The notes beneath the pieces are model-generated. The model was not told where the DNA came from. It worked only from the letters and a program-made list of their open reading frames with translations, and searched no databases. 64,000 nt of DNA from a virus. Made by a program: the position numbers and the translations under genes. The stretch's first letter is position 1; each line of letters starts with the position of its first letter. The stretch lies in IMG/VR virus record IMGVR_UViG_3300031576_000019, positions 1 through 64,000 of that record. One strand, 5' to 3'. Positions 269 to 23,632 of the stretch are shown here, piece by piece.

Positions 269-1444
269 TTACATTCCTATCATTGAACGCGCTCGGACAC
301 CTAATTGGAGCGGCGCAGAATAAAGCATAGATGGATCGGGGACTCCACTGTAGTAAAAGGCCACCCCAAACTCGCCAAAGAAGCGCGGGGTAGTTATAAA
401 CCAAGCAGTGTTCCGAGTGACGGTTGTAAGTGTTTTCTCGGTGCTCCAGGTAGCCCCACCATCGGTGGAATACTTATAGTACAGCTGAATAGCACTCTGC
501 CAAGTCTGGCTACCATCCGATAGACCGCCATAGATGACGTACCAGTAACCGCTCACCGTATCAAGCGCAACCCCGCAACCACCCTGATCATCAGTGCTGT
601 TCAAGACTACATTGGCGCTGGTTTCGGTAATGGTTGTGTCGGTGACAATCCAGCATCGCAGATTCGCATTGGCCGTATCTACTGCGCTCCAAGCCACAAT
701 AATGTTGCGCGAATTAGCAATATCCACACAAGCCGCTAAGTGAGGGAAGGAACTGGTCGCGGCTACGTCCGTCATGCTGGTAGCGATGGATGTTTCGGCC
801 CAGGTGTTGGCGCTATCATCGTAACGCTTGACCGACAACTCGTTGGCCGAGGCGTCCCAGAAAATCAACATCACATCGGCTGTGTCAGCATTCCAACCTG
901 GTAAAAGAAGATATTGGTCTTGCGTAGCGCCTTCGGATGGATCCGCAATGGTATCCGTCCACGTCGCGCCTACATCGGTAGAGGACCAGGCCCCATCTTC
1001 CGTGCCCGCATCAATTGAACCCGCCACGCGCAGATCGCCATTTCTCCCGCGTGTTATGGTGAGTGCTCCACCGTTAGCGACAGAGGCACCCGCAAAGACA
1101 GTCGTTTGGGTGGAGAGAGCATCAGATGAAGCGGTGTTGATATTGCGATAAAGAATGTCGGAGCCGACGCTCTCGGTGTAAGCGATATGGATCAGATTGC
1201 CCGAAACATTGCTCCAGCGGTCATACCAGACCGAAATAGCAGTAACCGTCCCAGTAAAAATCAAGGTGGGTACTGACCACGACAAGCCATTGTTGCTTGA
1301 CTTGATGAAGTAGACATCCTGATCCCGTTGGAGATAGACAAGGTACAGCACGCCCGAAAGCGTCTGTACAACATAGTTTGTTCCCCCGCCGGTAAAGATA
1401 GGCGAAGCAATCGTTCCGCCTGCTATAACTTCTGCGCGCGGCAT
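269..1444 (-). CDS. Asp-box (BNR) repeat beta-propeller protein, probably virion-associated
   Basis: Three Asp-box motifs SSNNGLSW, STDVGATW, STDGGATW; Thr/Ser/Ala-rich; late-gene context. Confidence 0.65.
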   Translation of the reverse strand: MPRAEVIAGGTIASPIFTGGGTNYVVQTLSGVLYLVYLQRDQDVYFIKSSNNGLSWSVPTLIFTGTVTAISVWYDRWSNVSGNLIHIAYTESVGSDILYRNINTASSDALSTQTTVFAGASVANGGALTITRGRNGDLRVAGSIDAGTEDGAWSSTDVGATWTDTIADPSEGATQDQYLLLPGWNADTADVMLIFWDASANELSVKRYDDSANTWAETSIATSMTDVAATSSFPHLAACVDIANSRNIIVAWSAVDTANANLRCWIVTDTTITETSANVVLNSTDDQGGCGVALDTVSGYWYVIYGGLSDGSQTWQSAIQLYYKYSTDGGATWSTEKTLTTVTRNTAWFITTPRFFGEFGVAFYYSGVPDPSMLYSAPLQLGVRARSMIGM

Positions 1445-1450
1445 AGTGTC

Positions 1451-2038
1451 TTAAGCCAGTGTCAGCGTCAAGGTCAACGCCCAAGTGCCACCCGATTTGG
1501 TGCCGAAACTTTCAACTTTACGATTCAACATCCGACCGCCCGATGAGCCATTGAAGATAGCCCACTCGGCCCAAGCGAAGTTGGCATCGCCCGACGCAAA
1601 GGAACTCTGGAATACAATTGAGGCCGCGCCGGAAGTCGTTGCGTCCGTGTGTTGTGGATAGGTGGCGTCCATTACCTTACGGAGCTTGTTGGCGGCGGCC
1701 TGCAGGTCGGTCTGCGTGGCGGCTGCCGCTGTGCTGGAATCACCGACGCCGATATAGGCGTTGCCGTTGTTAAAGTAGGTCAGGGTTTGAGCGGCTGTGC
1801 CAGTGCCGTTTCCAATCAGGCATTGCCAGAGACACGAGGCCCCGCCGTACATCAGCAGGTTGCCCTCGTCCTCAATGACTTCATACGGTTGGGGGGCAAG
1901 GCCTATCGCGACTTGTTCGGGTGTCCAGTCCCCCTCACGCTTTTCCAGCTTCCAATGGCAATGCCATTTCAACCCTTCCAAGCCAGGAAGTGCGACGGAC
2001 AGCGCAGAATCCTCGTTGAGTAAAGATTGGTCAATCAT
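1451..2038 (-). CDS. Putative tail/virion structural protein
   Basis: YIGVGDSSTAAAATQTDLQ...ANFAWAEWAIFN...MLNRKV pattern typical of tail fibre/baseplate-proximal proteins. Confidence 0.6.
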   Translation of the reverse strand: MIDQSLLNEDSALSVALPGLEGLKWHCHWKLEKREGDWTPEQVAIGLAPQPYEVIEDEGNLLMYGGASCLWQCLIGNGTGTAAQTLTYFNNGNAYIGVGDSSTAAAATQTDLQAAANKLRKVMDATYPQHTDATTSGAASIVFQSSFASGDANFAWAEWAIFNGSSGGRMLNRKVESFGTKSGGTWALTLTLTLA

Positions 2039-2048
2039 GGGTAGACTC

Positions 2049-3092
2049 CTAGGGGTTCACTTTTTTGACGCCCGACTTGTGTACCCAGAGCGCCTTGGGT
2101 ATTTCGATTAATAGGAAGTTATTCATCTCGTCAAGGACTCTTCCGGTCGAACCACCATAGCCCGCCGCAAATGGCTTGAATGAACTACCCGGCCCGAAGC
2201 GCATATTCCGAAAGAGCGGGAGAAGTTCTACTGTAGCGCCAATCCATTCTGAGGCGGGTGGCGGAGCGGCCAACTCAATCAGTCTACTTGCCACCTGGCC
2301 CTCGATATTGTGGTTGTTCCAACCCGCTCCGAGCGTGAAGACAGTGGCACCCAATACGTAGTTATCTTTGGCTAGTTCATTATCAAGCGGAAGCAGGATA
2401 CTGTTGAGATATTGTTCGGCATTACCGTTGAACAGTTCCTTCCAAGACTTGCCAGGAGGCACGCCAAACGGCACGCCGTCCGCGCCACACTCCGTGATAA
2501 GGACAGGCAAGTTTGGATAACCCATCGCAGAGAAGCGCAGGTTATCTTCCCGGTGGCGAAGCAAGAGATACGACCAGGTACTTTGATCGGGGCCAGCGTA
2601 ACTGTGTCGGCCCAGCATAGCCTTGTAGACAACTGCCGCTACGAGTGCTGGATGATATTCTGCCCAGAGCGGGTAGTCTGGATTGCCAACGGCCCAACCT
2701 CCAATAACAGCCGTGCGGTTAAACGTCACCCGTAGAATACGAGCAAACTCGGCCAGAAAAGTAGCGTACCAGCGCATCGCAGTAGTGTCGGTGATGACAC
2801 ACTCGTTTGGTCCCTCCCACAGTTTCACACTGGGATTGAGAAGGATAGGCGATGATAGATATTGATGAGTGTAGGTCGCCGCCATCGCAACCGGGTCAGT
2901 CCCCAGAAGTTGATTGGGATCAAAGGCATTCTCAAACACCCGCCCGACAATCAGTGGGTGATGCGGAAGCGTTTCCGCCTCGGTCGCAAAGGAGAAGTCA
3001 CCCACCATCTTGACAATGGGCGCTCCTCTACGAGTCCATTCTGAGCCAGCGGCGCTCGTTCCGAGAATGTGCGGACCAAGTTTTTTTAACAT
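2049..3092 (-). CDS. Glycoside-hydrolase-like protein with C-terminal SH3b-like domain
   Basis: WEGPNE, LGRHSY and LITECG motifs of TIM-barrel GHs; NMRFGPGSSF is SH3b-like; start reset to ATG 3092 behind GGAGAG. Confidence 0.55.
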   Translation of the reverse strand: MLKKLGPHILGTSAAGSEWTRRGAPIVKMVGDFSFATEAETLPHHPLIVGRVFENAFDPNQLLGTDPVAMAATYTHQYLSSPILLNPSVKLWEGPNECVITDTTAMRWYATFLAEFARILRVTFNRTAVIGGWAVGNPDYPLWAEYHPALVAAVVYKAMLGRHSYAGPDQSTWSYLLLRHREDNLRFSAMGYPNLPVLITECGADGVPFGVPPGKSWKELFNGNAEQYLNSILLPLDNELAKDNYVLGATVFTLGAGWNNHNIEGQVASRLIELAAPPPASEWIGATVELLPLFRNMRFGPGSSFKPFAAGYGGSTGRVLDEMNNFLLIEIPKALWVHKSGVKKVNP

Positions 3093-3102
3093 CAACACTC
3101 TC

Positions 3103-4278
3103 CTATGGACACGCGACGCGCTGACTTGCTTGTGTACGCAGTGTATCAATAGCGGAAGCGACATCCGGCTGAGTGAGGTACGGAATATCCCACTTCCACA
3201 TGACCAACCCACACGCACCCGGCTCGTTCAACATGAGACCTCCCCAGTTTTCCAGTTCCGCGCCAGTAACGTTTCCGGCCGCGCCCCCTCCGATCAGATT
3301 GATCGCAAAGTAAAGTTTTATCTGACGCGACTGGGCCGCCACGAGATTGGTCGAGATAAAATCTTGAATAGTTCCTTTCCGAATGGTGTACTGCGAGACG
3401 ACCACCGTAACATCCGGTATGGACGAGGCGGGCGCGGCCGCCAGCCAGGTCGCTTCGGTGTACGCGCCAAAAGGTAGCGTTGGCCAGTAAGCTAATGAGT
3501 ATTCAGCGGCAGCCTGCAGGGTGGCATAGGGTATCGGCCAGCCCGGACCATTGGAAGCATCCTGCGGCTCGTCGAATCCAATGTGCGCCAAGAGCGTGCC
3601 GTCTGAAACGTAGCTGGACAAATCTATTCCGGCGAATCGGTCAACGAGCGTCTTCCATTTTGCAAAATCCCACGCGCCACTCGAATCCTTTACCTGCGCT
3701 CCGGTCAGATTGAGCCAAATTCGTATTCCATTGGCTCGGGCGGCTTCCAGCATTGGAATCAAATCATCTGGCTTGCTGGCGAAGGCGCGTAGCGCGCCAG
3801 TGTAACCAGATGCTGGAAATTCTGAATTGGGCAGATGGATCACCCCAAACGGGATGCCCGTTTCGGAGGGAGGCGGCACCTGAGTCGGAATCAGAGTCGC
3901 GGTAGGTAATGGCGTGTTGGTGGGCGTGACCGTAGAGGTCGGCGTATCGGTAGATGTCACCGTTGCTGTCTCGGTCGGTATAAGCGTCATCGTCGCCGTC
4001 TCGGTCGGCGTATCGCTTGGCATAAGTGTGTCGGTGGGTGTGTGAGTCGCCGTTGCCGTTTCGGTCGGAGTATGCGTAATGGTCGGCGTCAATGTCTGAC
4101 AATCACTAATTCCCAGCGGTTCTGTCTGATATTGGCACAGTACAGCCACTGAGAGGGCATTTACAGACGCAATTTCAAGCGTGGCTGGCGCAGACGCAAG
4201 TTGCTGACCCGCCGACAGAGTGGCAATAGTGGTAAAGATTGCAAAGATAATAGACGTGCGTTTGGAGGGCAGTTTCAT
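3103..4278 (-). CDS. Secreted protein with Thr/Pro-rich linker and GH-like domain
   Basis: N-terminal hydrophobic signal, TPTETAT repeats, then globular domain with FDEP motif. Confidence 0.6.
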   Translation of the reverse strand: MKLPSKRTSIIFAIFTTIATLSAGQQLASAPATLEIASVNALSVAVLCQYQTEPLGISDCQTLTPTITHTPTETATATHTPTDTLMPSDTPTETATMTLIPTETATVTSTDTPTSTVTPTNTPLPTATLIPTQVPPPSETGIPFGVIHLPNSEFPASGYTGALRAFASKPDDLIPMLEAARANGIRIWLNLTGAQVKDSSGAWDFAKWKTLVDRFAGIDLSSYVSDGTLLAHIGFDEPQDASNGPGWPIPYATLQAAAEYSLAYWPTLPFGAYTEATWLAAAPASSIPDVTVVVSQYTIRKGTIQDFISTNLVAAQSRQIKLYFAINLIGGGAAGNVTGAELENWGGLMLNEPGACGLVMWKWDIPYLTQPDVASAIDTLRTQASQRVACP

Positions 4279-4286
4279 TTTGGCTC

Positions 4287-5840
4287 CTAGCGGGTCACCA
4301 CACGCCGCACATAGCGGTCGGCGATGGCGCGCGAGTAACGGCCCTGAGGGAAGGCGTTGGTTTCCGGGAGGTCTTCTTCAATATTTTCCTCGAAGCCCAT
4401 GTACCAAAGCAATCCCGCCAGGACAAAAAAGGTAGACACAATATCTTGGGGAATCTTTCCGTCTGGAAGCGCGTACTTGGCAAACTGGTGAACAATGCCC
4501 TCAATCGGAGGAAAGCGCACACGCACTTTTGCCATAATCAGTTTCAGCGACACCATGTAGACCGACTTCTTGACCCCACCCATGTCCATCGGCACAATCG
4601 GCAAATCTTCGGGAAACGACATCTCAGAGTGAACCTTCTGCCCAGCCGTTGAGTCATAGGCCCCCAGACTCGCCCGGTAATAGCCCATCCACTCCATAAA
4701 CTTGTTTACGAATGGACTGTACTTGCCTCCACCATCTCCCCACCAAAAAGCCCGCAGGACCGCCGGGCTGGGATAGTCCGTCACATCAAAAACAAGAACC
4801 ACTGGCGCATTCCGATAGGGTGGTTTACCTTGGCCCGGATCACCTACCACCACATATACTCGGCTTTGTTCGCGCGGAAGCGCCCACAGCACACAGCCAG
4901 CCTTCTGCATCTCATTGTAATGAAAGCCTGGCTCCTCCAACATCACCCCGTCTTTGAGAATCTCTGCCAATCCTTCGTCCAGGCATGGGCCAATCAATTG
5001 ATCCGAGAATTCCTTGCCGCCTCCAATGGGCCGCTTACCGTTCATGTGGATGGCAATCTTCTCCGGGTCATGGCCCATCCGCCGCTTGAACGATTCAATT
5101 TGTTCGGGCGTCAGATTCTTGTTTTGTTCAGTGCTTATTAGCCAACTGCGCTGAACAGGCGTCGCTGGAACACCCTGATCGTAGAGCCACCACAGTTCAG
5201 GGTTATCGGCAGAATTGGCGGTAATGGATAGTCTTCCCATTCTCGCTCGACCCTTTATCTTGCCGCGCACCCGTGTGCCCAGGTTGATAATGGCCGTGGA
5301 TAAGTCATCCACCGATTCGCCCTGGTCAATGTTGACCCAATCTCCGTCCCAAGTCAGGATTTTCTGGGCATTCTTGTCGCTCGACATAAACTCAAGCGTG
5401 CCCTTGTGGATTGCGCCACCCGGATACCGATACTGAATGGTCAGTGTTGGGTAGGGCTTAATGTTCACTTTCCACAGGAACCGATCTTTGTAGATGGTGT
5501 TCTCTAGCCAAGACAGCAAACTGTCGTACATCTGCTTCGATTGCCAAGCGATTGGCGCAACGTTCAGAAACTTGAAATCGGTTATTAATGTGCAGTCTGT
5601 CAGGGCCGAGAAGCCGACGGTAATTGTTTTCGAAGAACCCATACCACCCACGACAACTAAATCAAGTTGGGGGGCTTGATGAAACTCCAACTGCCAAGGT
5701 GGATCAATGTTGTCGTCAAACACCCATCCTTGGCTCTGCTGACGGGTCCGAACATAATAGCCGGTCAGATAGCGCGCGTCTTGTTTCCCAAGCTCAAAAA
5801 CGCGCTGGTCTTCATCGGTTAGGGTGTAAAGGTGTTTCAC
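4287..5840 (-). CDS. terL: Terminase large subunit
   Basis: Walker A VVVGGMGSSKT, Walker-B-like WVNIDQGE, C-terminal RNase-H-like nuclease (VVGDPG, AYDSTAG, QDIVS); 517 aa. Confidence 0.85.
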   Translation of the reverse strand: MKHLYTLTDEDQRVFELGKQDARYLTGYYVRTRQQSQGWVFDDNIDPPWQLEFHQAPQLDLVVVGGMGSSKTITVGFSALTDCTLITDFKFLNVAPIAWQSKQMYDSLLSWLENTIYKDRFLWKVNIKPYPTLTIQYRYPGGAIHKGTLEFMSSDKNAQKILTWDGDWVNIDQGESVDDLSTAIINLGTRVRGKIKGRARMGRLSITANSADNPELWWLYDQGVPATPVQRSWLISTEQNKNLTPEQIESFKRRMGHDPEKIAIHMNGKRPIGGGKEFSDQLIGPCLDEGLAEILKDGVMLEEPGFHYNEMQKAGCVLWALPREQSRVYVVVGDPGQGKPPYRNAPVVLVFDVTDYPSPAVLRAFWWGDGGGKYSPFVNKFMEWMGYYRASLGAYDSTAGQKVHSEMSFPEDLPIVPMDMGGVKKSVYMVSLKLIMAKVRVRFPPIEGIVHQFAKYALPDGKIPQDIVSTFFVLAGLLWYMGFEENIEEDLPETNAFPQGRYSRAIADRYVRRVVTR

Positions 5841-6157
5841 TGGGATGGATCAGGCAATGGCCACTGCCAACCGATTGATTCCAGACCATACCAATCATTC
5901 GCCCTGGCCTCGGATGTCCAATTCAGGCAATAGGACACTACCTCAGCCTCTGTGACACCGGATTGGACAGAAAAGAAAATACAAACGTCGTAGAGGCCGC
6001 GATAGTATTCCGTCTCCGCTGGCTGATCTATCGGCCCTTGGTTCCCGAGTGAGAAACCAAACGAACCCGCCAACAACAGCGCACAGGGCGAGAAAAACAA
6101 CGACAGCACCAGACACCCCTGAAGGAGCTCTCTCCAATATGAGAAATTGAATTTCAT
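5837..6157 (-). CDS. Hypothetical membrane protein
   Basis: N-terminal TM segment; stop overlaps terL start. Confidence 0.6.
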   Translation of the reverse strand: MKFNFSYWRELLQGCLVLSLFFSPCALLLAGSFGFSLGNQGPIDQPAETEYYRGLYDVCIFFSVQSGVTEAEVVSYCLNWTSEARANDWYGLESIGWQWPLPDPSQ

Positions 6158-8970: not shown

Positions 8971-9537
8971 GTCACTACGGAGAATGCCCGTAGCGGGCCT
9001 GTACTTCACCATCCAGGCCCGTCGTTCATGGTGCAACCAACCTACTCCCTGTAGCCAAGTACACCCTGCCGTATGTCACCACATACACGGACAGGCCATG
9101 ACATTGTGTCATGTGCGCTGTGTAGAGCATCACCCCTGCCTGCTATATGGGCATCGGCGCTCTAGGCCACGTTGCATTGCCTTATATGCAACCCCTGCAC
9201 AATGTAGCTGTGCATCGCCAGGAGAATAGCACTCCTGCGTAAAGAATACTTCCTCTGACAGTCAGGTAGGCTGTCCCCTATGCACAGGTTGGGTTTCTGA
9301 AACTTGTGTGTTTCTTCACATCCTGCACCTTATATCATCCGTTAATAGATAACATAATGTCTGTCTTTCCATTGTGGTGACACATTGTACAGCCTATGCT
9401 ATCTCTCACCCTACAATGTGCTATGTATAGTAGCACATAGCACTACATAACTACGTATACCTATACCTACATGGTCTGGCGTCGTCAGCATGTAGGTATG
9501 TGGTATGTGTGGGCAGTAAGCCCCTACCCTGTGTGGT

Positions 9538-9599
9538 GGGGGTGCCGTTTGTGGGTATGTACTCACACTGAGGAGTCCTATTCAGGACGAAACAGCCCC
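9538..9599 (+). ncRNA. Hammerhead ribozyme (type III) candidate
   Basis: GTT triplet 9547-9549; stem I TGTGGGT-atgt-ACTCACA; core CTGAGGA 9568-9574; stem II GTCCT-attc-AGGAC; GAAAC 9589-9593; stem III imperfect. Confidence 0.75.
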
Positions 9600-9648
9600 T
9601 GGGCCAATCTAACCGATTGGCCCTTTTGATTCCTTGAAAGGAACTCAC

Positions 9649-9846
9649 ATGAACAACAACACTGGCACTTCTGGAACGCGCACTAACAACTTGTACATTG
9701 GCAGGTCCTACACCGCCCGCCAAGCTAATGCCGCTATCAATGCCCGCCGTGGGCAGATGACGGGTGGCGGGTGCTTTGTGGGGAGCATCCTGCTCTTGGC
9801 GCTTATTGTGACCATCTTGGTCGTCATTCTCCCCCATGTTCGCTAA
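9649..9846 (+). CDS. Small membrane protein
   Basis: AAAGGA RBS; C-terminal TM helix. Confidence 0.6.
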   Translation: MNNNTGTSGTRTNNLYIGRSYTARQANAAINARRGQMTGGGCFVGSILLLALIVTILVVILPHVR

Positions 9847-9860
9847 TAAAGGACAATCCC

Positions 9861-10067
9861 ATGAATCCCATCGTCAAAGAAGCCGCCGATATGTTGAAAA
9901 GCGGCACGCCGGCAGTTTTCGTTGAATTGGTTCTGAACGAGAAAGGTTTCAACACTGATGAAGCCGAAGGAATTGTATGGGCCGCCCAGACCCATAACAG
10001 CACACCCGACCAAGCCTTCTTCAATGGCATTGAAGCCGACTTCCGTTCCGCGCTCAACGCGCGCTAA
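9861..10067 (+). CDS. Small early hypothetical protein
   Basis: AAAGGA RBS; MNPIVKEAAD... Confidence 0.6.
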   Translation: MNPIVKEAADMLKSGTPAVFVELVLNEKGFNTDEAEGIVWAAQTHNSTPDQAFFNGIEADFRSALNAR

Positions 10068-10187
10068 CTCCGAAAATAGACAGCCACCTGCATTTAGGCG
10101 TTGTCTCATAGTTGTTTTACATCTGTAGTTCTATCTATCAACGCGCCGTAACCCTTGATAGGGATACACGGCGCGTTTTTGATTCTC

Positions 10188-10421
10188 ATGTTTGGATTCG
10201 GAAAACCAGTAACAGTAAGCGTTCACCACGGCTCGTTGGCTGAGGCTACGAGCAATGAGCGAAACGCCCATCTGTACGGCGCGGCGGTCTGCACCGCCGA
10301 AGAAGTTGCCCTGTACAACGAGTGGGAGAACATTCCGGTCACCGGTGACCCAGATGCCGGGATTGTGGCGAACGGTTGGGACCCGTCCGCTCTCTACAAC
10401 ATCAAGGTCAAGGGCGAATAG
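10188..10421 (+). CDS. Small early hypothetical protein
   Basis: ATG immediately after hairpin+TTTTGATTC. Confidence 0.5.
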   Translation: MFGFGKPVTVSVHHGSLAEATSNERNAHLYGAAVCTAEEVALYNEWENIPVTGDPDAGIVANGWDPSALYNIKVKGE

Positions 10422-10500
10422 CGCAGAAGACAGCCAGCAGGGGACTGGCTGTAATGCGGCAGGCCAATCATGTGTTGGCTTCTGGTTCTCAGCCCCAGAA
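10421..10500 (+). ncRNA. Twister ribozyme candidate (permuted, P1 closed, with P3)
   Basis: GCA-GA-AGAC, P1 AGCCAG/CTGGCT, G-TAA-TGC, GGC, P3 GCCAA/TTGGC, P4 TCTGG/CCAGA with loop TTCTCAGCC; T1 only 3 bp. Confidence 0.6.
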
Positions 10501-10514
10501 GAAAGGAAACATTC

Positions 10515-10634
10515 ATGTTAATTGTGAAATTGTTGCGGGCGAGTGGGCGACTCCTTGAAATCGCCAAGACTACAGATGAGGTTATAGTCCCCGAAATACG
10601 CATTGCGAAGTATGCGGGAGAATCAAACAGATAG
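10515..10634 (+). CDS. 39-aa peptide between the two twister candidates
   Basis: AAAGGA RBS; MLIVKLLRASGRLLEIAKTTDEVIVPEIRIAKYAGESNR. Confidence 0.5.
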   Translation: MLIVKLLRASGRLLEIAKTTDEVIVPEIRIAKYAGESNR

Positions 10635-10694
10635 ATGCCCGGATTCAGGTCGCGGGCTGGTGCGTGTGTCGTGGTTGTGAAGAAATCTTTTGGT

Positions 10695-10770
10695 TTCTGG
10701 AGGCAGAGTGACGCACGCTAAAAACGTGCGGTAATGCGCTGACTGGTCACAAGCCCAGTTACCTATGGAA
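10695..10770 (+). ncRNA. Twister ribozyme (permuted, type-P5-like)
   Basis: GCA-GA-GTGA, P1 CGCACG/CGTGCG, G-TAA-TGC, GCT, P4 GACTGG/CCAGTT with loop TCACAAGC; pseudoknots GTGA/TCAC and GC/GC. Confidence 0.8.
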
Positions 10771-10815
10771 CGTCCTGCAACCTACTTGGGATACGCAGGG
10801 CGCTTTTGATTCCAG

Positions 10816-11013
10816 ATGACTACTCCCGCGATTGTGCAGACCGCTAACTGGCTCCGTTCAGAAGCCATTGAATTGATTGAAGACAATGCTCACCGAGCGG
10901 TGGGTGGGCGTGATTTGAGCGAGCGCCTTGATGAGGCCCTTGAAAATGTGTGGGAAGCCAAGCGCCTTGCCAACACTGCTGATGTTCTGGAATTCGGCAC
11001 TCCCAACAACTAA
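10816..11013 (+). CDS. Small early hypothetical protein
   Basis: 65 aa, ATG right after hairpin+TTTTGATTCC. Confidence 0.55.
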   Translation: MTTPAIVQTANWLRSEAIELIEDNAHRAVGGRDLSERLDEALENVWEAKRLANTADVLEFGTPNN

Positions 11014-11038
11014 CTAGCCCCCGTGAAAGGAGGGCACA

Positions 11039-11350
11039 ATGTACATTCAAGTCAACTACGCGCCCTCCGAAGATGGGTACACCCTTCATACAGACTGGGT
11101 TGAGATGGGGGTGATTCGGTTCGTTGATGAGGGTGGGCGTAAGGTCTTGGTTTGCCATGGGGACGAGGAGGGATTAGTGACTGCTCCAGATAGGTACATG
11201 AATTGGGCTGACATTGTAATTTGTTGTCACCCAGCTCAAGTGCAAGAGCGTCAAGGGATTACAACTTTGGGCCGATGGGAAGGCGTGACTGAAATCCGGT
11301 TCTTCCCCAACTTCATTCAGGTATGCCAAGCGGGAGCATACACCATGTAA
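11039..11350 (+). CDS. Hypothetical protein
   Basis: 103 aa, strong AAAGGAGG RBS. Confidence 0.65.
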   Translation: MYIQVNYAPSEDGYTLHTDWVEMGVIRFVDEGGRKVLVCHGDEEGLVTAPDRYMNWADIVICCHPAQVQERQGITTLGRWEGVTEIRFFPNFIQVCQAGAYTM

Positions 11351-11426
11351 TTCCCTCTAAGTTGGAGGGGAAGTCTGGCCTTGCCAATCCCGGCAGGGCC
11401 TTTTTGATTCCATAAGGAGATACAAG

Positions 11427-11753
11427 ATGTTCAATCTTGAGGTAGCTGACCCGCAGACCGTGAAAGCGGCTGTGGGCCAGACTAAAAGCTTGGGGAGCGG
11501 GGCGCGGCTCTCCATAGTGGTTACTCCGGCTGGGGACCCGGAGTTAGCCTTTTACACCACTGATAACAAGTTGGTGGTGAAAGATTCGGTGGCCAATTTG
11601 GGGGCGGCCATGGGGTTGAAGGAAGCCGCCGACTTCCTGGCGCGCTATGCGCGCGCCAATGTGGACGTGCTGGCCATTAACGACTGGGCAACTCCAGTCG
11701 TTAATGATGCGGATGATGGCTACATCCGCGATGAAAACGGCAACATTATTTAG
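11427..11753 (+). CDS. Hypothetical protein
   Basis: 108 aa, AAGGAG RBS. Confidence 0.65.
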   Translation: MFNLEVADPQTVKAAVGQTKSLGSGARLSIVVTPAGDPELAFYTTDNKLVVKDSVANLGAAMGLKEAADFLARYARANVDVLAINDWATPVVNDADDGYIRDENGNII

Positions 11754-11841
11754 TGTAGATGATGTTTTGCGGATGGCCTTGACCCATTAGGTTTCGGGGT
11801 ATTTCAACATACGTTGAAACCGACTAGTCAAGCGAAAGACA

Positions 11842-12006
11842 ATGAATGTTTTGTTTTACGCCAGTTACGCATTTTGTTGTGAGTGGATCTGGTATCTGGA
11901 GGCTAAAGGCCGCATTGCGCTCTGCTTCTGGGATGACACCCAGAAGTGCTGGGCCATGACGGATAGCATCCGTCTGATCATGACGGATGAGGGACAAACT
12001 GAATAA
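11842..12006 (+). CDS. 54-aa protein, paralogue of 12543..12710
   Basis: MNVLFYASYAFCCEWIWYLEAKGRIALCFWDDTQKCWAMTDSIRLIMTDEGQTE; below the ORF-track cutoff. Confidence 0.6.
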   Translation: MNVLFYASYAFCCEWIWYLEAKGRIALCFWDDTQKCWAMTDSIRLIMTDEGQTE

Positions 12007-12096
12007 CACCGAGAGCACGCGCCTAACCCGCGCGTGGAAGGTGGCCAGCGTCCGCATATCTCAAAGTAGCGGAGCATTTCCCACCGGGAGATTGAC

Positions 12097-12414
12097 ATGA
12101 GACAGAGATTTTCCTTTCACGAATTAACCATCACAGCAAATGTAGAGTTTGACCTGCAAAATGGGGAGGTTGAGATTGTGGGCAGTGTTATTTGCGAAGA
12201 AACCAACCGACGCGCGAATTTTTCTTATGCGCGTCATGCCCACAATGTTACGGCGGCTGTGCGTCAAGTTGAGAAGTTAGCAGAGAAAGAAGCTAATAAA
12301 CTGGCCGATGAAGTCTATCGGTTCAAGCAACTTGCGGCCGCCAACCGCAATGCCAATCGCCGCATGGCCTATGACAACCCCGAGGCCGAAGCGGAGTCCT
12401 ACGGAAATAAATAG
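12097..12414 (+). CDS. Hypothetical protein
   Basis: 105 aa, GGGAG RBS, followed by terminator-like hairpin. Confidence 0.6.
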   Translation: MRQRFSFHELTITANVEFDLQNGEVEIVGSVICEETNRRANFSYARHAHNVTAAVRQVEKLAEKEANKLADEVYRFKQLAAANRNANRRMAYDNPEAEAESYGNK

Positions 12415-12542
12415 TCTCCAGACCATGAGCGCCTCAGATGACTGAGGCGCTTTTGTTTGTGGACTATCTCATTATGCCCAAGCGGTTAGGCTTTCAGGGT
12501 GTTTCAACACATGCTGAAATCGGCCTGCTAGGCGAAAACAAC

Positions 12543-12710
12543 ATGGACACGACTCTATTCATTGTGCCAGATTACAAGATCGTAGTTTTATGGTTGAGAC
12601 ACCTGGCAAGCAAGGGTCGGGGAGCCTTTGTCTTTGCTATTGGTGGGGGTGCCTTTTCTATTAGCGAATCTTTCCGCATTGTTGCGGCAGATGAAGGGCA
12701 AAGTGACTAA
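12543..12710 (+). CDS. 55-aa protein, paralogue of 11842..12006
   Basis: MDTTLFIVPDYKIVVLWLRHLASKGRGAFVFAIGGGAFSISESFRIVAADEGQSD. Confidence 0.6.
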   Translation: MDTTLFIVPDYKIVVLWLRHLASKGRGAFVFAIGGGAFSISESFRIVAADEGQSD

Positions 12711-12711
12711 C

Positions 12712-12906
12712 ATGCCCACCCAAGTTGTTGAAATGACGGCCCTTGACTGGGCCAAAGAACAGGCCGCGCTCGCACAGGAACGGAGTGATTGGACAGTCGT
12801 AAGGGAAACGGTTGCCTTCATTGGAGAGATTCAAGGGGCCAACGGCACTCCTGACAACTTCACACTCATATCCGAGAAAGCATCCACAAGTGGGTGGACG
12901 CTTTAG
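12712..12906 (+). CDS. Small hypothetical protein
   Basis: MPTQVVEMTALDW..., starts just after the upstream stop. Confidence 0.5.
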   Translation: MPTQVVEMTALDWAKEQAALAQERSDWTVVRETVAFIGEIQGANGTPDNFTLISEKASTSGWTL

Positions 12907-13011
12907 TTTCTCTTTTCACCTTCGCCGACCTGTTCTCTGCAACTGGGAACATGGTCGGTTTTTCTTTCAGTTGCTTCGCAAACACCCATGCAAATCCTCA
13001 GGAGACACATC

Positions 13012-13412: not shown

Positions 13413-13568
13413 ATGAATCCAGAAGAATATAACATCCCCAGCGCGTATGAAATCGCGCTGGAAGACGCGGTAGAGTCGGCCATTGAAAGTGGGGCCGACT
13501 CAGATGTAGCCATCGAAGTAGCCGCGGAGGCAATAGCGGCCGGGGAAGATAGTGTGGAAGGGTGGTAA
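13413..13568 (+). CDS. Small acidic protein
   Basis: AAGGAG RBS; very Glu/Asp-rich. Confidence 0.55.
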   Translation: MNPEEYNIPSAYEIALEDAVESAIESGADSDVAIEVAAEAIAAGEDSVEGW

Positions 13569-13570
13569 TA

Positions 13571-14200
13571 ATGGACTACACCTCAGTCATCGAGCAACTC
13601 GTCGCGGAGGGACGCGACGATGATGCAATCAAATACATGTCCTCTCGTCAGGCCGAGGGTCTGATGTGGGAGGATATGAAGGGGTTGGCCAAGGTCTTTT
13701 TCTGTTGCTCAACATTCCAAGAGTGGGCGGAGTTGAGTAACCGGATAGAAAATCAGACTGACATTCCTATTCTCTCCGACCCGGAGAGAATAATAAGGTT
13801 GGTCGTGAACTTCGATGGGGGGTCGAAGAACAATGGGTCGGTCACTCAAGTAGGCTATGGGTCTTATCGAGTGATATGGTGGGAGAGCCAGGGTTGGAAG
13901 CCTATAAGCCGTCTTCAATTCGGAGCCGTTACTTCCAACGTGGCAGAGTACATGACCGCCATTGCCGCCTTGGAAGATACCAAGGTGAATTTGGAGAAGG
14001 GTGGCTTTCAACCACGCAAAGCCAGGGTTGAGATGCGCGGGGACTCAGCCTTGGTTATCAACCAGGTACAGAGGTTATGGAAGATTTCTTCCACAATGGC
14101 CCCATGGGCGGACTGCTTGAGCAACGCGGCTCAGGACTTTGGGGAAGTGATGTGGGTGAAAGTCCCACGCGAGGAGAACGTGCGAATACTTGGCCATTAG
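13571..14200 (+). CDS. rnhA: Ribonuclease HI-like protein with N-terminal extension
   Basis: FDGGSKNNG, TSNVAEY, RGDSALVINQV and VPREEN motifs; the final conserved Asp after EEN is not evident. Confidence 0.8.
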   Translation: MDYTSVIEQLVAEGRDDDAIKYMSSRQAEGLMWEDMKGLAKVFFCCSTFQEWAELSNRIENQTDIPILSDPERIIRLVVNFDGGSKNNGSVTQVGYGSYRVIWWESQGWKPISRLQFGAVTSNVAEYMTAIAALEDTKVNLEKGGFQPRKARVEMRGDSALVINQVQRLWKISSTMAPWADCLSNAAQDFGEVMWVKVPREENVRILGH

Positions 14201-20082: not shown

Positions 20083-20394
20083 GGGCGTGAATTTGGTCTC
20101 GACAGGATAGGCGGGAAGTGAATTGCAGGCGGAGAAGCGCAGACCTCCTAAAATCGGCGCAACCTTTCAAGTGCTGAAGCACCCATTGCGGTGGATTCCC
20201 TGTTTGGGTTCCGCCCCGGCCAACTGGCCGAAAGCCTGTTCGCAGGCGTCTCCGTGACCGCGTAAGTGTCCGGTGGTGGAAGTCGGTCATCCCCGAAACC
20301 GACACAGATGAAGACGCTGACGGCGTACCGTCTAAGCCTGTAGGAATTTGCTTCGCAAGTGTCTTGGACGCCGGATCGTTACCGGCCACGTCCA
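20083..20394 (+). ncRNA. ssrA: tmRNA
   Basis: 5' GGGCGTGAATTTGGTCTCGAC; 3' GGACGCCGG-ATCGTTA-CCGGCCACGTCCA; acceptor stem with G3-U; tag ORF 20173-20265 AEAPIAVDSLFGFRPGQLAESLFAGVSVTA*. Confidence 0.9.
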
Positions 20395-20752
20395 CAGTTA
20401 TCCCGGCCAGCGGTGCTTTCTCGTTAGACGTTAGCCACTGTCCTCCGTCCGGGATAGAAAGAGTAGTTGGGGTTATGGCGGGCCGCGTAGGTTTTGTCCA
20501 GCCGCCGCCCAGCCCGCCCCCATTATTACTAGACAAGTATCGGGTGGAATGGAAATAGACCTCCGTAATCGAGCACATCTGGCTGGCCCGATACTTGTCC
20601 GACTTTACGACAACCCTTTAGGGGCCTGGATTGCAGAGTAAACCGCCGATACACACCCATTGAGGTTGAGGCGCGATAGAAACTCTGAGGACGAAAGGCC
20701 CCACCAACTTCTTCTAGGATTGTGGAATACGTCAGGTTCTAAGAGGCCCAAG

Positions 20753-21046
20753 ATGAAAATCGGCGTGACGATTGATGAAGTCCGACAGCAAGGCACGCAG
20801 ACCGCTTATGTGCCCTCCCGTTTGCACGGTCATAACCTTGACTTGCAACACCCCGATGTGGAGTTTGGCTTTGTTACCAGTGTCAAGTCCATCGGCGCTT
20901 TCTGTCGCTTCTGGTCCAAATTTGTTCCTGACGAACTACGGACCACAGCAAACAGTGAGATGGCCCCATTTCACAGTCTGGCGCTCCATGAGGGTCATTC
21001 GGAAGAGGCAGTGGCCAAACAGTTGAAGAAAATTATGGGCGGTTAG
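20753..21046 (+). CDS. Phage hypothetical protein
   Basis: AYVP..HPDVEFGFVTSV..FCRFWSK..LRTTANSE; stop lies within the tRNA 5' end. Confidence 0.6.
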   Translation: MKIGVTIDEVRQQGTQTAYVPSRLHGHNLDLQHPDVEFGFVTSVKSIGAFCRFWSKFVPDELRTTANSEMAPFHSLALHEGHSEEAVAKQLKKIMGG

Positions 21047-21109
21047 TTCAGTTGGGAGAACGTCTGCGCTGCAAGCAGAATGTCGTGGGTTCGAGTCCCA
21101 CATCGTCCA
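21037..21109 (+). tRNA. tRNA-Ala (TGC)
   Basis: Cloverleaf: GGGCGGT/ATCGTCC with G3-U70; anticodon arm TCTGC-GCTGCAA-GCAGA; T-arm GTGGG-TTCGAGT-CCCAC; CCA not encoded. Confidence 0.85.
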
Positions 21110-21130
21110 CATGCTTACGAAGGTAGCAAA

Positions 21131-21560
21131 CTGTGTGCATTCATCCTGGAAGGACAGGACTGGCCAGATAAGTACAAGTATGCCTCGGTGGAGGTAATTG
21201 CCAGAGAGAATGATTCCCACCAATGCGGTGGGCCTCAGGAGATCAGCCGGAATCAAGCCCGGCCAATGCACACGACAGGTGCGGTCAAGAGTAAGACCGT
21301 AAATCGGCAGGCGCTAAACTGCCAGCCTGTCTTGACAGAGACAACCGCTCAAGCGTCCGGTATTAGGCGTTGGACGGGCCGACGCAGGCCATTTCATGTA
21401 AGCCCTGTCTCTGTCCTCCGAAATGCCAAAGGGCTCGTTTGCCCGGAGGCCTGGGATGTGGTGGGCCGCTTATAAATGGCCTAGCTGGACGAGGGTAATT
21501 GCCCCTGACAGTGAATAACTAGCCACCCTCACCCGCAACTGTGTGGCATCCCAGACAAAC
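21131..21560 (+). ncRNA. Candidate large structured ncRNA downstream of tRNA-Ala
   Basis: Long-range pairs GTGTGCATT/AATGCACAC and CTGGGATG/CATCCCAG plus many short hairpins; no convincing ORF. Confidence 0.55.
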
Positions 21561-21962
21561 TCTTTCCCGGTGTAACCGGTGACCATCATTCACGGAAGAT
21601 TTTATGGGCGCAAAATGAAACAAACCGCTTATGAATTGGCCGAAAGACTTCTACAAACTGAGAGAGAACGACACTCTCTCAACACGCAGGAGCGCAGGCT
21701 ACTCCTTTCGGCAGTGGACATGATTACTCGGGGCCTGGGTAAATGGATTTTTTGCCGTAGTGTCCTCCGTCAGGATCAACATCCTACGATGGTCTGGCAA
21801 CCACCCGATAGTAAGGTTCCAGACCAAGAGCAGGAATTCGAGAATAGGGTCACTTCCGAAATTCTTCATTGGACCTCTGATTGATAATCTTGGCGACCGC
21901 GCGCATTACACCTACACAGTCTAAAGAGTTTCTCCTGTCTCAACCTGATTTGCCCAAAATTG

Positions 21963-23206: not shown

Positions 23207-23632
23207 ATGTACCAATCGTTAACCCTTATCGGCAATCTCGGCAAGGACCCTGAGTTGCGCTTCACCCCCAGTGGTCAACAAGTATGTAACTTCTCGGTTG
23301 CCACTTCTGAAAAGTGGACGGGCCAGGATGGTCAGGCCCACGATAAGACCATCTGGTGGCGCGTGACCTGCTGGGGAAAGCAAGCTGAGAACGTCAACAC
23401 CTACCTCAAAAAAGGCAACCGGGTGCTGGTCGTTGGCCGGATAACCGGTGACGACAGTGGCAACCCACGCACCTTCACCCGTACCAATGGAGAGACAGGC
23501 TCCTCGTTTGAAGTGACGGCACAGACTATCAAATTCCTCACACCCAAGGGTGAGGGCGGTGCGGCCACCGTAACCCCCACTTCTACTGAAACAGCGGATA
23601 GCTGGGGCGGCGACGACACCCTTCCCTTCTAG
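23207..23632 (+). CDS. ssb: Single-stranded DNA-binding protein
   Basis: LIGNLGKDPELRFTPSGQQVCNFSVAT...YLKKG; C-terminal DDTLPF. Confidence 0.95.
   Translation: MYQSLTLIGNLGKDPELRFTPSGQQVCNFSVATSEKWTGQDGQAHDKTIWWRVTCWGKQAENVNTYLKKGNRVLVVGRITGDDSGNPRTFTRTNGETGSSFEVTAQTIKFLTPKGEGGAATVTPTSTETADSWGGDDTLPF

Follow-up and report, generated by a model that had tools for sequence, protein, structure and literature searches.

Two twister ribozymes of the type-P5 class, one canonical and the other a credible variant, stand on the same strand in the early region of the complete genome of an uncultured cave phage and bracket a single ORF of 39 codons; we hold, with moderate confidence, that the early operon is most likely cut into separate linear messages, one of which is 280 nt long. 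The window, by which is meant the whole 64-kb stretch of DNA that was analysed, is the start of a 90,773-bp IMG/VR virus record, which has direct terminal repeats and is rated complete. The predicted cut sites, 10452|10453 and 10732|10733, lie 280 nt apart and were located where an earlier note on this DNA had placed them, and the ORF that this note had put between them (10515-10634) is present, with AAAGGA as its RBS. The note had proposed a stable mini-mRNA that would be either linear or circular. The linear form is supported, with credible twisters, an ORF and an RBS, while the circular form is not, given that no ligase was found in the phage and that the ends are unpaired in the predicted fold. 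The features around which the argument is built are the following.

10188..10421 (+): upstream small early gene of 77 aa, from the ORF list, codon score 0.305 (gene-like)
10422..10501 (+): twister 1, type-P5 with the optional P3 hairpin, from a partial Rfam match, the fold, a descriptor and a 3'-half model
10453..10732 (+): predicted released RNA of 280 nt, from the cut sites and twister chemistry
10502..10507 (+): RBS AAAGGA, directly 3' of P4 of twister 1 and 7 nt before the ATG
10515..10634 (+): 39-codon ORF, from the ORF list and the source's gene caller (P0001)
10681..10698 (+): possible hairpin of 7 bp, loop UUUU, just 5' of twister 2, read by eye
10702..10758 (+): twister 2, canonical type-P5, Rfam RF02684 with 49.5 bits (gathering score 37.6)
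10816..11013 (+): next small early gene, 65 aa, from the ORF list, codon score 0.364

Plus-strand genes extend from about 9.6 kb to about 52 kb and include helicase, methyltransferase, replication-initiator and primase-like proteins. Between 9.6 and 13 kb they are small orphans standing in a row, none of which matches a known family, a picture typical of an early region. Nine of the small early proteins gave zero PHROG or Pfam matches, and a homologue of the 77-aa upstream protein is absent among 5.8 billion proteins. The block of small genes is closed by a 212-aa protein (window 13562-14200, plus strand) with an RNase H-like domain, for which the Pfam RVT_3 match has 25.4 bits and the PHROG RNase H match is weak. 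DNA similar to the phage stretch was not found in the GenBank phages searched, and related loci were not found in the viral contigs searched with two flanking proteins. In sequencing runs, window 9000-13000 occurs in only two DNA runs, both from one cave metagenome and one of them probably the source. Further along the plus strand the window holds a phage-borne tmRNA (20083-20397, 77.6 bits) and a tRNA-Ala(UGC) (21037-21110). The gene-free structured stretch that comes after this tRNA contains, at 21221-21263 on the same strand, a weak match to a model of the twister 3' half (11.9 bits, E 0.37; CAAUGCG...CCGGAAUCAAGCCCGG); zero Rfam family matches were obtained in window 21100-21620.

A type-P5 twister is built from the helices P1, P2 and P4 and the pseudoknots T1 and T2, with a U-A cut site and with its termini at P5 (PMC5408937, PMC6765202), and a P3 helix is optional (PMC5408937). 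That cleavage leaves a 5'-OH and a 2',3'-cyclic phosphate is established (PMC6765202). When set against the class defined by RF02684 (Roth et al. 2014, as given in PMC5408937 and PMC6765202), twister 2 is canonical, whereas twister 1 differs by a C in the loop, by an AU-rich T1 (AGA:UCU) and by a loop of 9 nt. Twister 2 meets the Rfam gathering threshold and is the sole type-P5 twister in the window to be found at gathering thresholds. Its cut site is U10732|A10733, its T1 is GUG:CAC, and it scores 55.4 bits with model R1, which was made from eleven P3-less phage twisters with the window's own copies left out. The possible hairpin just upstream of it is absent from the minimum-energy fold of the whole 280-nt RNA, and for this reason it is given as a tentative reading only.

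Twister 1 begins directly where the 77-aa gene ends, so that the TAG stop of this gene (10419-10421) abuts the ribozyme. Its elements were read by eye and mapped to the numbering of the rice twister (PMC5113685, PMC5408937). P2 has 4 bp (10422-25 with 10455-58), P1 pairs 10431-37 with 10445-51, and P4 has 5 bp (10481-85 with 10495-99, the hairpin 10481-10499 having the loop UUCUCAGCC); the optional P3 is a hairpin at 10462-10480, directly after UAAUGCGGCAGG. T1 pairs A10428, G10429 and A10430 with U10489, C10488 and U10487, while T2 pairs G10459 and C10460 with C10493 and G10492, and the loop has its U-A pair between U10486 and A10491. The scissile step is U10452|A10453, the general-base G is G10426, and A10427 is the equivalent of A46 in the rice twister. 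All core nucleotides (U10452|A10453, A10454, G10426, A10427, U10486, A10491, G10492 and C10493) are in place, the sole exception being C10490. The T1 triplets, AGA:UCU where GGG:CCC or GUG:CAC is usual, keep three of three pairs by changes on both sides. The unconstrained minimum-energy fold of 10422-10501 consists of exactly P2, P1, P3 and P4; when the sequence context is longer, an alternative fold competes with it. Twister 1 is, in short, a credible type-P5 twister that by inspection has every structural element apart from the A-A pair of T1.

The score of twister 1 against RF02684 is 26.3 bits (10422-10478, at relaxed thresholds), which is below the gathering threshold of 37.6. This low value arises because the P3 hairpin precedes P4: the Rfam alignment puts P4 on the inserted, unrelated hairpin and skips the true P4. 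Two natural phage twisters that bear a P3 reach 28.8 and 30.5 bits with Rfam, also below threshold, and with model R1 twister 1 has 27.7 bits, where undoubted P3-bearing twisters from other phages have 21-37 bits. From these equally low scores it follows that the low score of twister 1 is a property of the models and not of this copy. The Rfam Twister-P5 model under-scores P3-bearing copies (L141, L147, L044 and L049, 28.8-30.5 bits against 37.6), so that such copies are missed at gathering thresholds. Model R2 covers only the 3' half of the twister, was made from the twisters of other phages and allows for P3 as an inserted element. With this model 10452-10499 comes second in the window, behind twister 2 (17.1 bits, E 0.022), and this match to the 3' half is independent of the match to the 5' half. 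A descriptor composed of GCAGA, a T1 triplet, TAATGC, GGT, the complement of the triplet and [AC]AGCCC, with T1 complementarity required, has two matches in the 90.8-kb genome, namely twister 1 and twister 2. In 300 composition-preserving shuffles it has zero matches, even when the requirement for complementarity is dropped. A copy of the twister-1 variant was not found elsewhere in the viral contigs searched for it.

Twister 1 departs from the consensus in two ways, by C10490 in place of the loop A and by one extra C, which makes the loop 9 nt long. The extra C (AGCC, then CC in the stem) is seen in about 15 or more of 42 natural P5 twisters. At C10490 the loop A forms, in crystal structures, the A-A pair in T1 (PMC5408937), so that here A10427 faces a C, and an A occupies this loop position in all of about 45 genuine or canonical twisters in the first sample of viral contigs. 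Cleavage by twister 1 may therefore be slow. A targeted scan found at least seven natural type-P5 twisters with the same C, a matched T1 and a good P1. They are on five phage contigs (L125, L130, L133, L141 and L147, the last with two), and several of them stand in arrays next to canonical copies. In the rice twister mutational scan, only G13, G30, A46 and G48 are given as tolerating no substitution, and T1 pairs as exchangeable for other pairs; the loop A is not among these four positions, while its partner A46 is (PMC5113685).

Consider, then, the case where twister 1 has decayed and only twister 2 cuts. There would be a single processing site, at 10732|10733, and the 39-codon ORF would not be separated from the three genes upstream of it. 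The score under the Rfam threshold speaks for such decay, and so does the C in place of a near-invariant loop A whose partner, A46, is one of four positions that tolerate no substitution in the rice twister (PMC5113685). In a decaying copy, however, one would not expect three T1 pairs to be retained by double changes, and P1, P2, P4, T2 and the U-A cut site are all intact. The loop A itself lies, moreover, outside these four intolerant positions (PMC5113685), and C variants occur within arrays of other phages that have a working look. We regard decay of twister 1 as unlikely, and judge that there is a good probability that it cleaves.

If both sites are cut, the released RNA is predicted to begin with A10453, bearing a 5'-OH, and to end with U10732, bearing a 2',3'-cyclic phosphate; the frame at 10515-10634 is the only one in the interval that is credibly coding. 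Its AAAGGA is a standard RBS in this phage, where AAAGGA with an ATG 6-9 nt later precedes many genes; a gene that starts near 23207 has a nearly identical AAAGGAAACATT-ATG. With 52 long genes as the training set, the log-odds score for codon usage is 0.111 for the ORF, compared with 0.235 +/- 0.131 for windows of true genes and -0.133 +/- 0.161 for spurious ORFs. The value 0.111 is reached by 8.7% of the spurious ORFs, and 15% of the true windows are that low, which means that the codon usage leans toward coding with a score that is intermediate. A homologue of the 39-aa peptide is absent among 5.8 billion proteins, and the peptide has no PHROG or Pfam match. A minus-strand gene at 10394-10603 was considered and rejected, with a codon score of -0.045 and all neighbouring genes on the plus strand.

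The missing homologues and family matches, together with the intermediate codon score, would also suit an interval that is not a message at all, where the ORF is there by chance and the two cuts release a spacer or a small non-coding RNA of 280 nt. This we consider rather doubtful. The RBS has the same kind and spacing as those of confirmed genes of the phage, and the codon usage favours coding by an estimated factor of about 2.5 to 1. The minimum-energy fold of the 280-nt RNA, in which the ends are unpaired, is no more stable than those of shuffled sequences (z -0.88), and comparable cassettes elsewhere are filled by one ORF with a strong RBS. The 39-codon ORF is probably a real gene.

Same-strand twisters that bracket single genes recur in other complete phage genomes, with up to seven in a row. 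In the viral contigs obtained from pattern scans, same-strand twisters a few hundred bases apart are frequent, and the interval from one twister to the next is usually one gene with a strong RBS, as exemplified by the distances between cuts given here.

L125: 288 nt between cuts, one ORF of 49 aa
L147: 406 nt between cuts, one ORF of 100 aa
L039: 412 nt between cuts, one ORF of 112 aa
L050: 612 nt between cuts, one ORF of 166 aa
L081: 683 nt between cuts, one ORF of 192 aa
L020, L032, L034, L053: up to 1.8 kb between cuts, several genes

Single genes are bracketed by same-strand twisters also in L141. The longest array is that of L133/G001 (IMGVR_UViG_3300047444_000783, 109.6 kb, complete), where seven type-P5 twisters lie within 5 kb (1309-6118, plus strand), all seven above the Rfam threshold and with about one gene between each pair. 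The downstream twister of L125 begins 2 nt past the stop codon, much as twister 1 here follows directly after a stop. The 280-nt cassette is in this respect the small end of a common arrangement. Its 39-aa peptide has no similarity to the 49-aa peptide of the L125 cassette. Some further observations were made on these arrays. The 288-nt cassette of L125 (5906-6259, minus strand) has, in its 5' untranslated part, three copies of a repeat of about 20 nt (ATAGATTTTATCTTGTGCGG-like). The seven twisters of L133 have six different T1 triplets. In L133 and L141 an AUG lies within the conserved U|AAUGC, one base past the cut, and in 5 of about 12 intervals it is in frame with, and open as far as, the downstream gene, where about 2 intervals are expected by chance; the internal, RBS-bearing start codons of these intervals look like the real starts.

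Twister ends are substrates for circularisation by RtcB ('Tornado'), and engineered circularisation designs have an added end-pairing stem and permuted twisters that leave short tails. At the present locus, unlike in Tornado-type designs, each end of the 280-nt RNA keeps half a ribozyme, and an end-pairing stem is not predicted. The natural circular mRNA that was raised in the earlier note would come about if a host RtcB-type ligase joined the cyclic phosphate of U10732 to the 5'-OH of A10453, and the resulting 280-nt circle were translated from its internal RBS. If such a circle existed, an early phage peptide would be translated from a very stable template. The chemistry of the ends suits RtcB, as is established (PMC8782182), RtcB is widespread among bacteria (present in 10 of 14 control genomes), and 3 bp of P2, read from the sequence, could form between the two ends.

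These points are outweighed by others, and the circle is not supported. No RNA ligase was found to be encoded by the phage. The remark in the same note that the window lacks an RtcB gene is borne out, and the search for rtcB over the whole phage genome came out equally empty, as did that for an Rnl2-type ligase; an Rnl1-type ligase of the T4 kind was not found in the phage genome either, in a weak search that had no positive control. Both ends of the 280-nt RNA are half-twisters which its predicted fold keeps unpaired. At the chimeric junction the T1 triplets would be GUG against UCU, which are not complementary, and one would therefore not expect the ends to stay together; by the same mismatch, the junction twister of a circle could not re-cut it. 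Neighbouring twisters in other arrays mostly have different T1 triplets, which argues against selection for end-joining. Twister-bracketed units elsewhere, with up to 1.8 kb and several genes, fit better with operon processing. In the tandem hammerheads of prophages, circular or spliced products were considered and circles were looked for, but neither kind was detected (PMC3088659). A circular 280-nt message is accordingly very improbable. Two other readings were rejected. If the locus were an integrated multimer of a viroid-like circular RNA, it would consist of repeats of one unit, but the two twisters differ in P1, T1 and P3; splicing by the ribozymes that joins the flanks would fuse no frame, since the upstream gene ends before twister 1.

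We return to the cutting of the early operon into linear messages, for which two features outside the cassette are of interest.

9542..9598 (+): candidate type-III hammerhead at the head of the same early transcript, Rfam RF00008 with 26.8 bits
10771..10802 (+): GC-rich hairpin, then UUUUGAUUCC, seen in the fold of 10733-10815

The hammerhead candidate, with an E of 0.021 in 7.2 kb, does not reach the gathering score of 48.5. Its core, CUGAGGA...GAAA, is intact, stem III has two mismatches, and the minimum-energy fold is a three-way junction (z -2.9), with the cut predicted after U9549 in the triplet GUU. A terminator-like hairpin lies 3 nt beyond the candidate, and then comes the first early gene. 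GC-rich hairpins are found on the plus strand at 9601-9623, 10141-10176, 10771-10802 and 11377-11400, each followed by TTTTGATTC and, a few nt on, by a start codon, and two of the four directly follow a ribozyme. Those at 9601-9623 and 11377-11400 were flagged as resembling terminators. The location of the GC-rich hairpins just before genes suggests, for its part, 5'-end hairpins or attenuators. The hairpin at 10771-10802 comes after twister 2 and before the ATG at 10816, the start codon of the 65-aa gene, which is the first on the RNA that follows twister 2. A GC hairpin with the motif UUUUGAUUC comes before the next start codon after both the hammerhead candidate and twister 2, and from this the whole early transcript looks punctuated in the same way.

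The proposed course of events is as follows. The rightward early operon, with its small orphan genes from about 9.6 kb, would be transcribed as one long RNA, which the self-cleaving ribozymes would cut co-transcriptionally. The 77-aa gene would be cut off directly behind its stop codon by twister 1, and the 39-codon ORF 98 nt past its stop by twister 2, with a separate linear message of 280 nt as the result. At its 5' end this message would carry a 5'-OH and the P3 and P4 hairpins left by twister 1, and then at once the RBS; at its 3' end it would carry the P1 hairpin of twister 2, bearing a 2',3'-cyclic phosphate. The 3' end of the upstream gene would, likewise, be closed by the P1 hairpin of twister 1 with its cyclic phosphate. 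Such cutting would uncouple the stability and the translation of each gene from those of its neighbours, and the 5'-OH end may either stabilise the message or mark it for decay, depending on the RNases of the host. We infer that both ribozymes cleave in the cell, that the 39-codon ORF is translated, and that the cuts would serve to set the stability or the translation of the messages. In engineered insulators (RiboJ), a self-cleaving ribozyme and a hairpin directly upstream of the RBS give a defined 5'-OH end, and the present locus resembles them in that a self-cleaving ribozyme and a hairpin are followed directly by the RBS.

Phages in which ribozymes bracket a single gene have been described before. 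Perreault et al. 2011 (PMC3088659) described multiple hammerheads that flank individual genes or short gene blocks in prophages; their cleavage was shown in vitro and in E. coli, and processing to single-gene mRNAs was proposed (PMC3088659). A review from 2019 adds that twisters may likewise process polycistronic transcripts, for a purpose that it leaves unsettled (PMC6765202). As with the prophage hammerheads (PMC3088659), same-strand self-cleaving ribozymes here bracket small genes on a phage transcript. The differences from these hammerheads (PMC3088659) are that the ribozymes here are predicted twisters, with one hammerhead candidate upstream, and that the bracketed unit, with 280 nt and 39 codons, is unusually small. 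Since the layout is found both in the literature and in several other phage genomes, the locus adds no new principle. The role of many bacterial and phage twisters and hammerheads is still an open question (PMC6765202), and for this question the locus is a compact test case, with two twisters and a hammerhead candidate within 1.2 kb of a complete phage genome. One of the two twisters is a rare natural variant, and the bracketed gene is the smallest among the loci compared. The locus would make a handy construct with which to learn whether the stability and the translation of early phage messages are set by ribozyme cuts.
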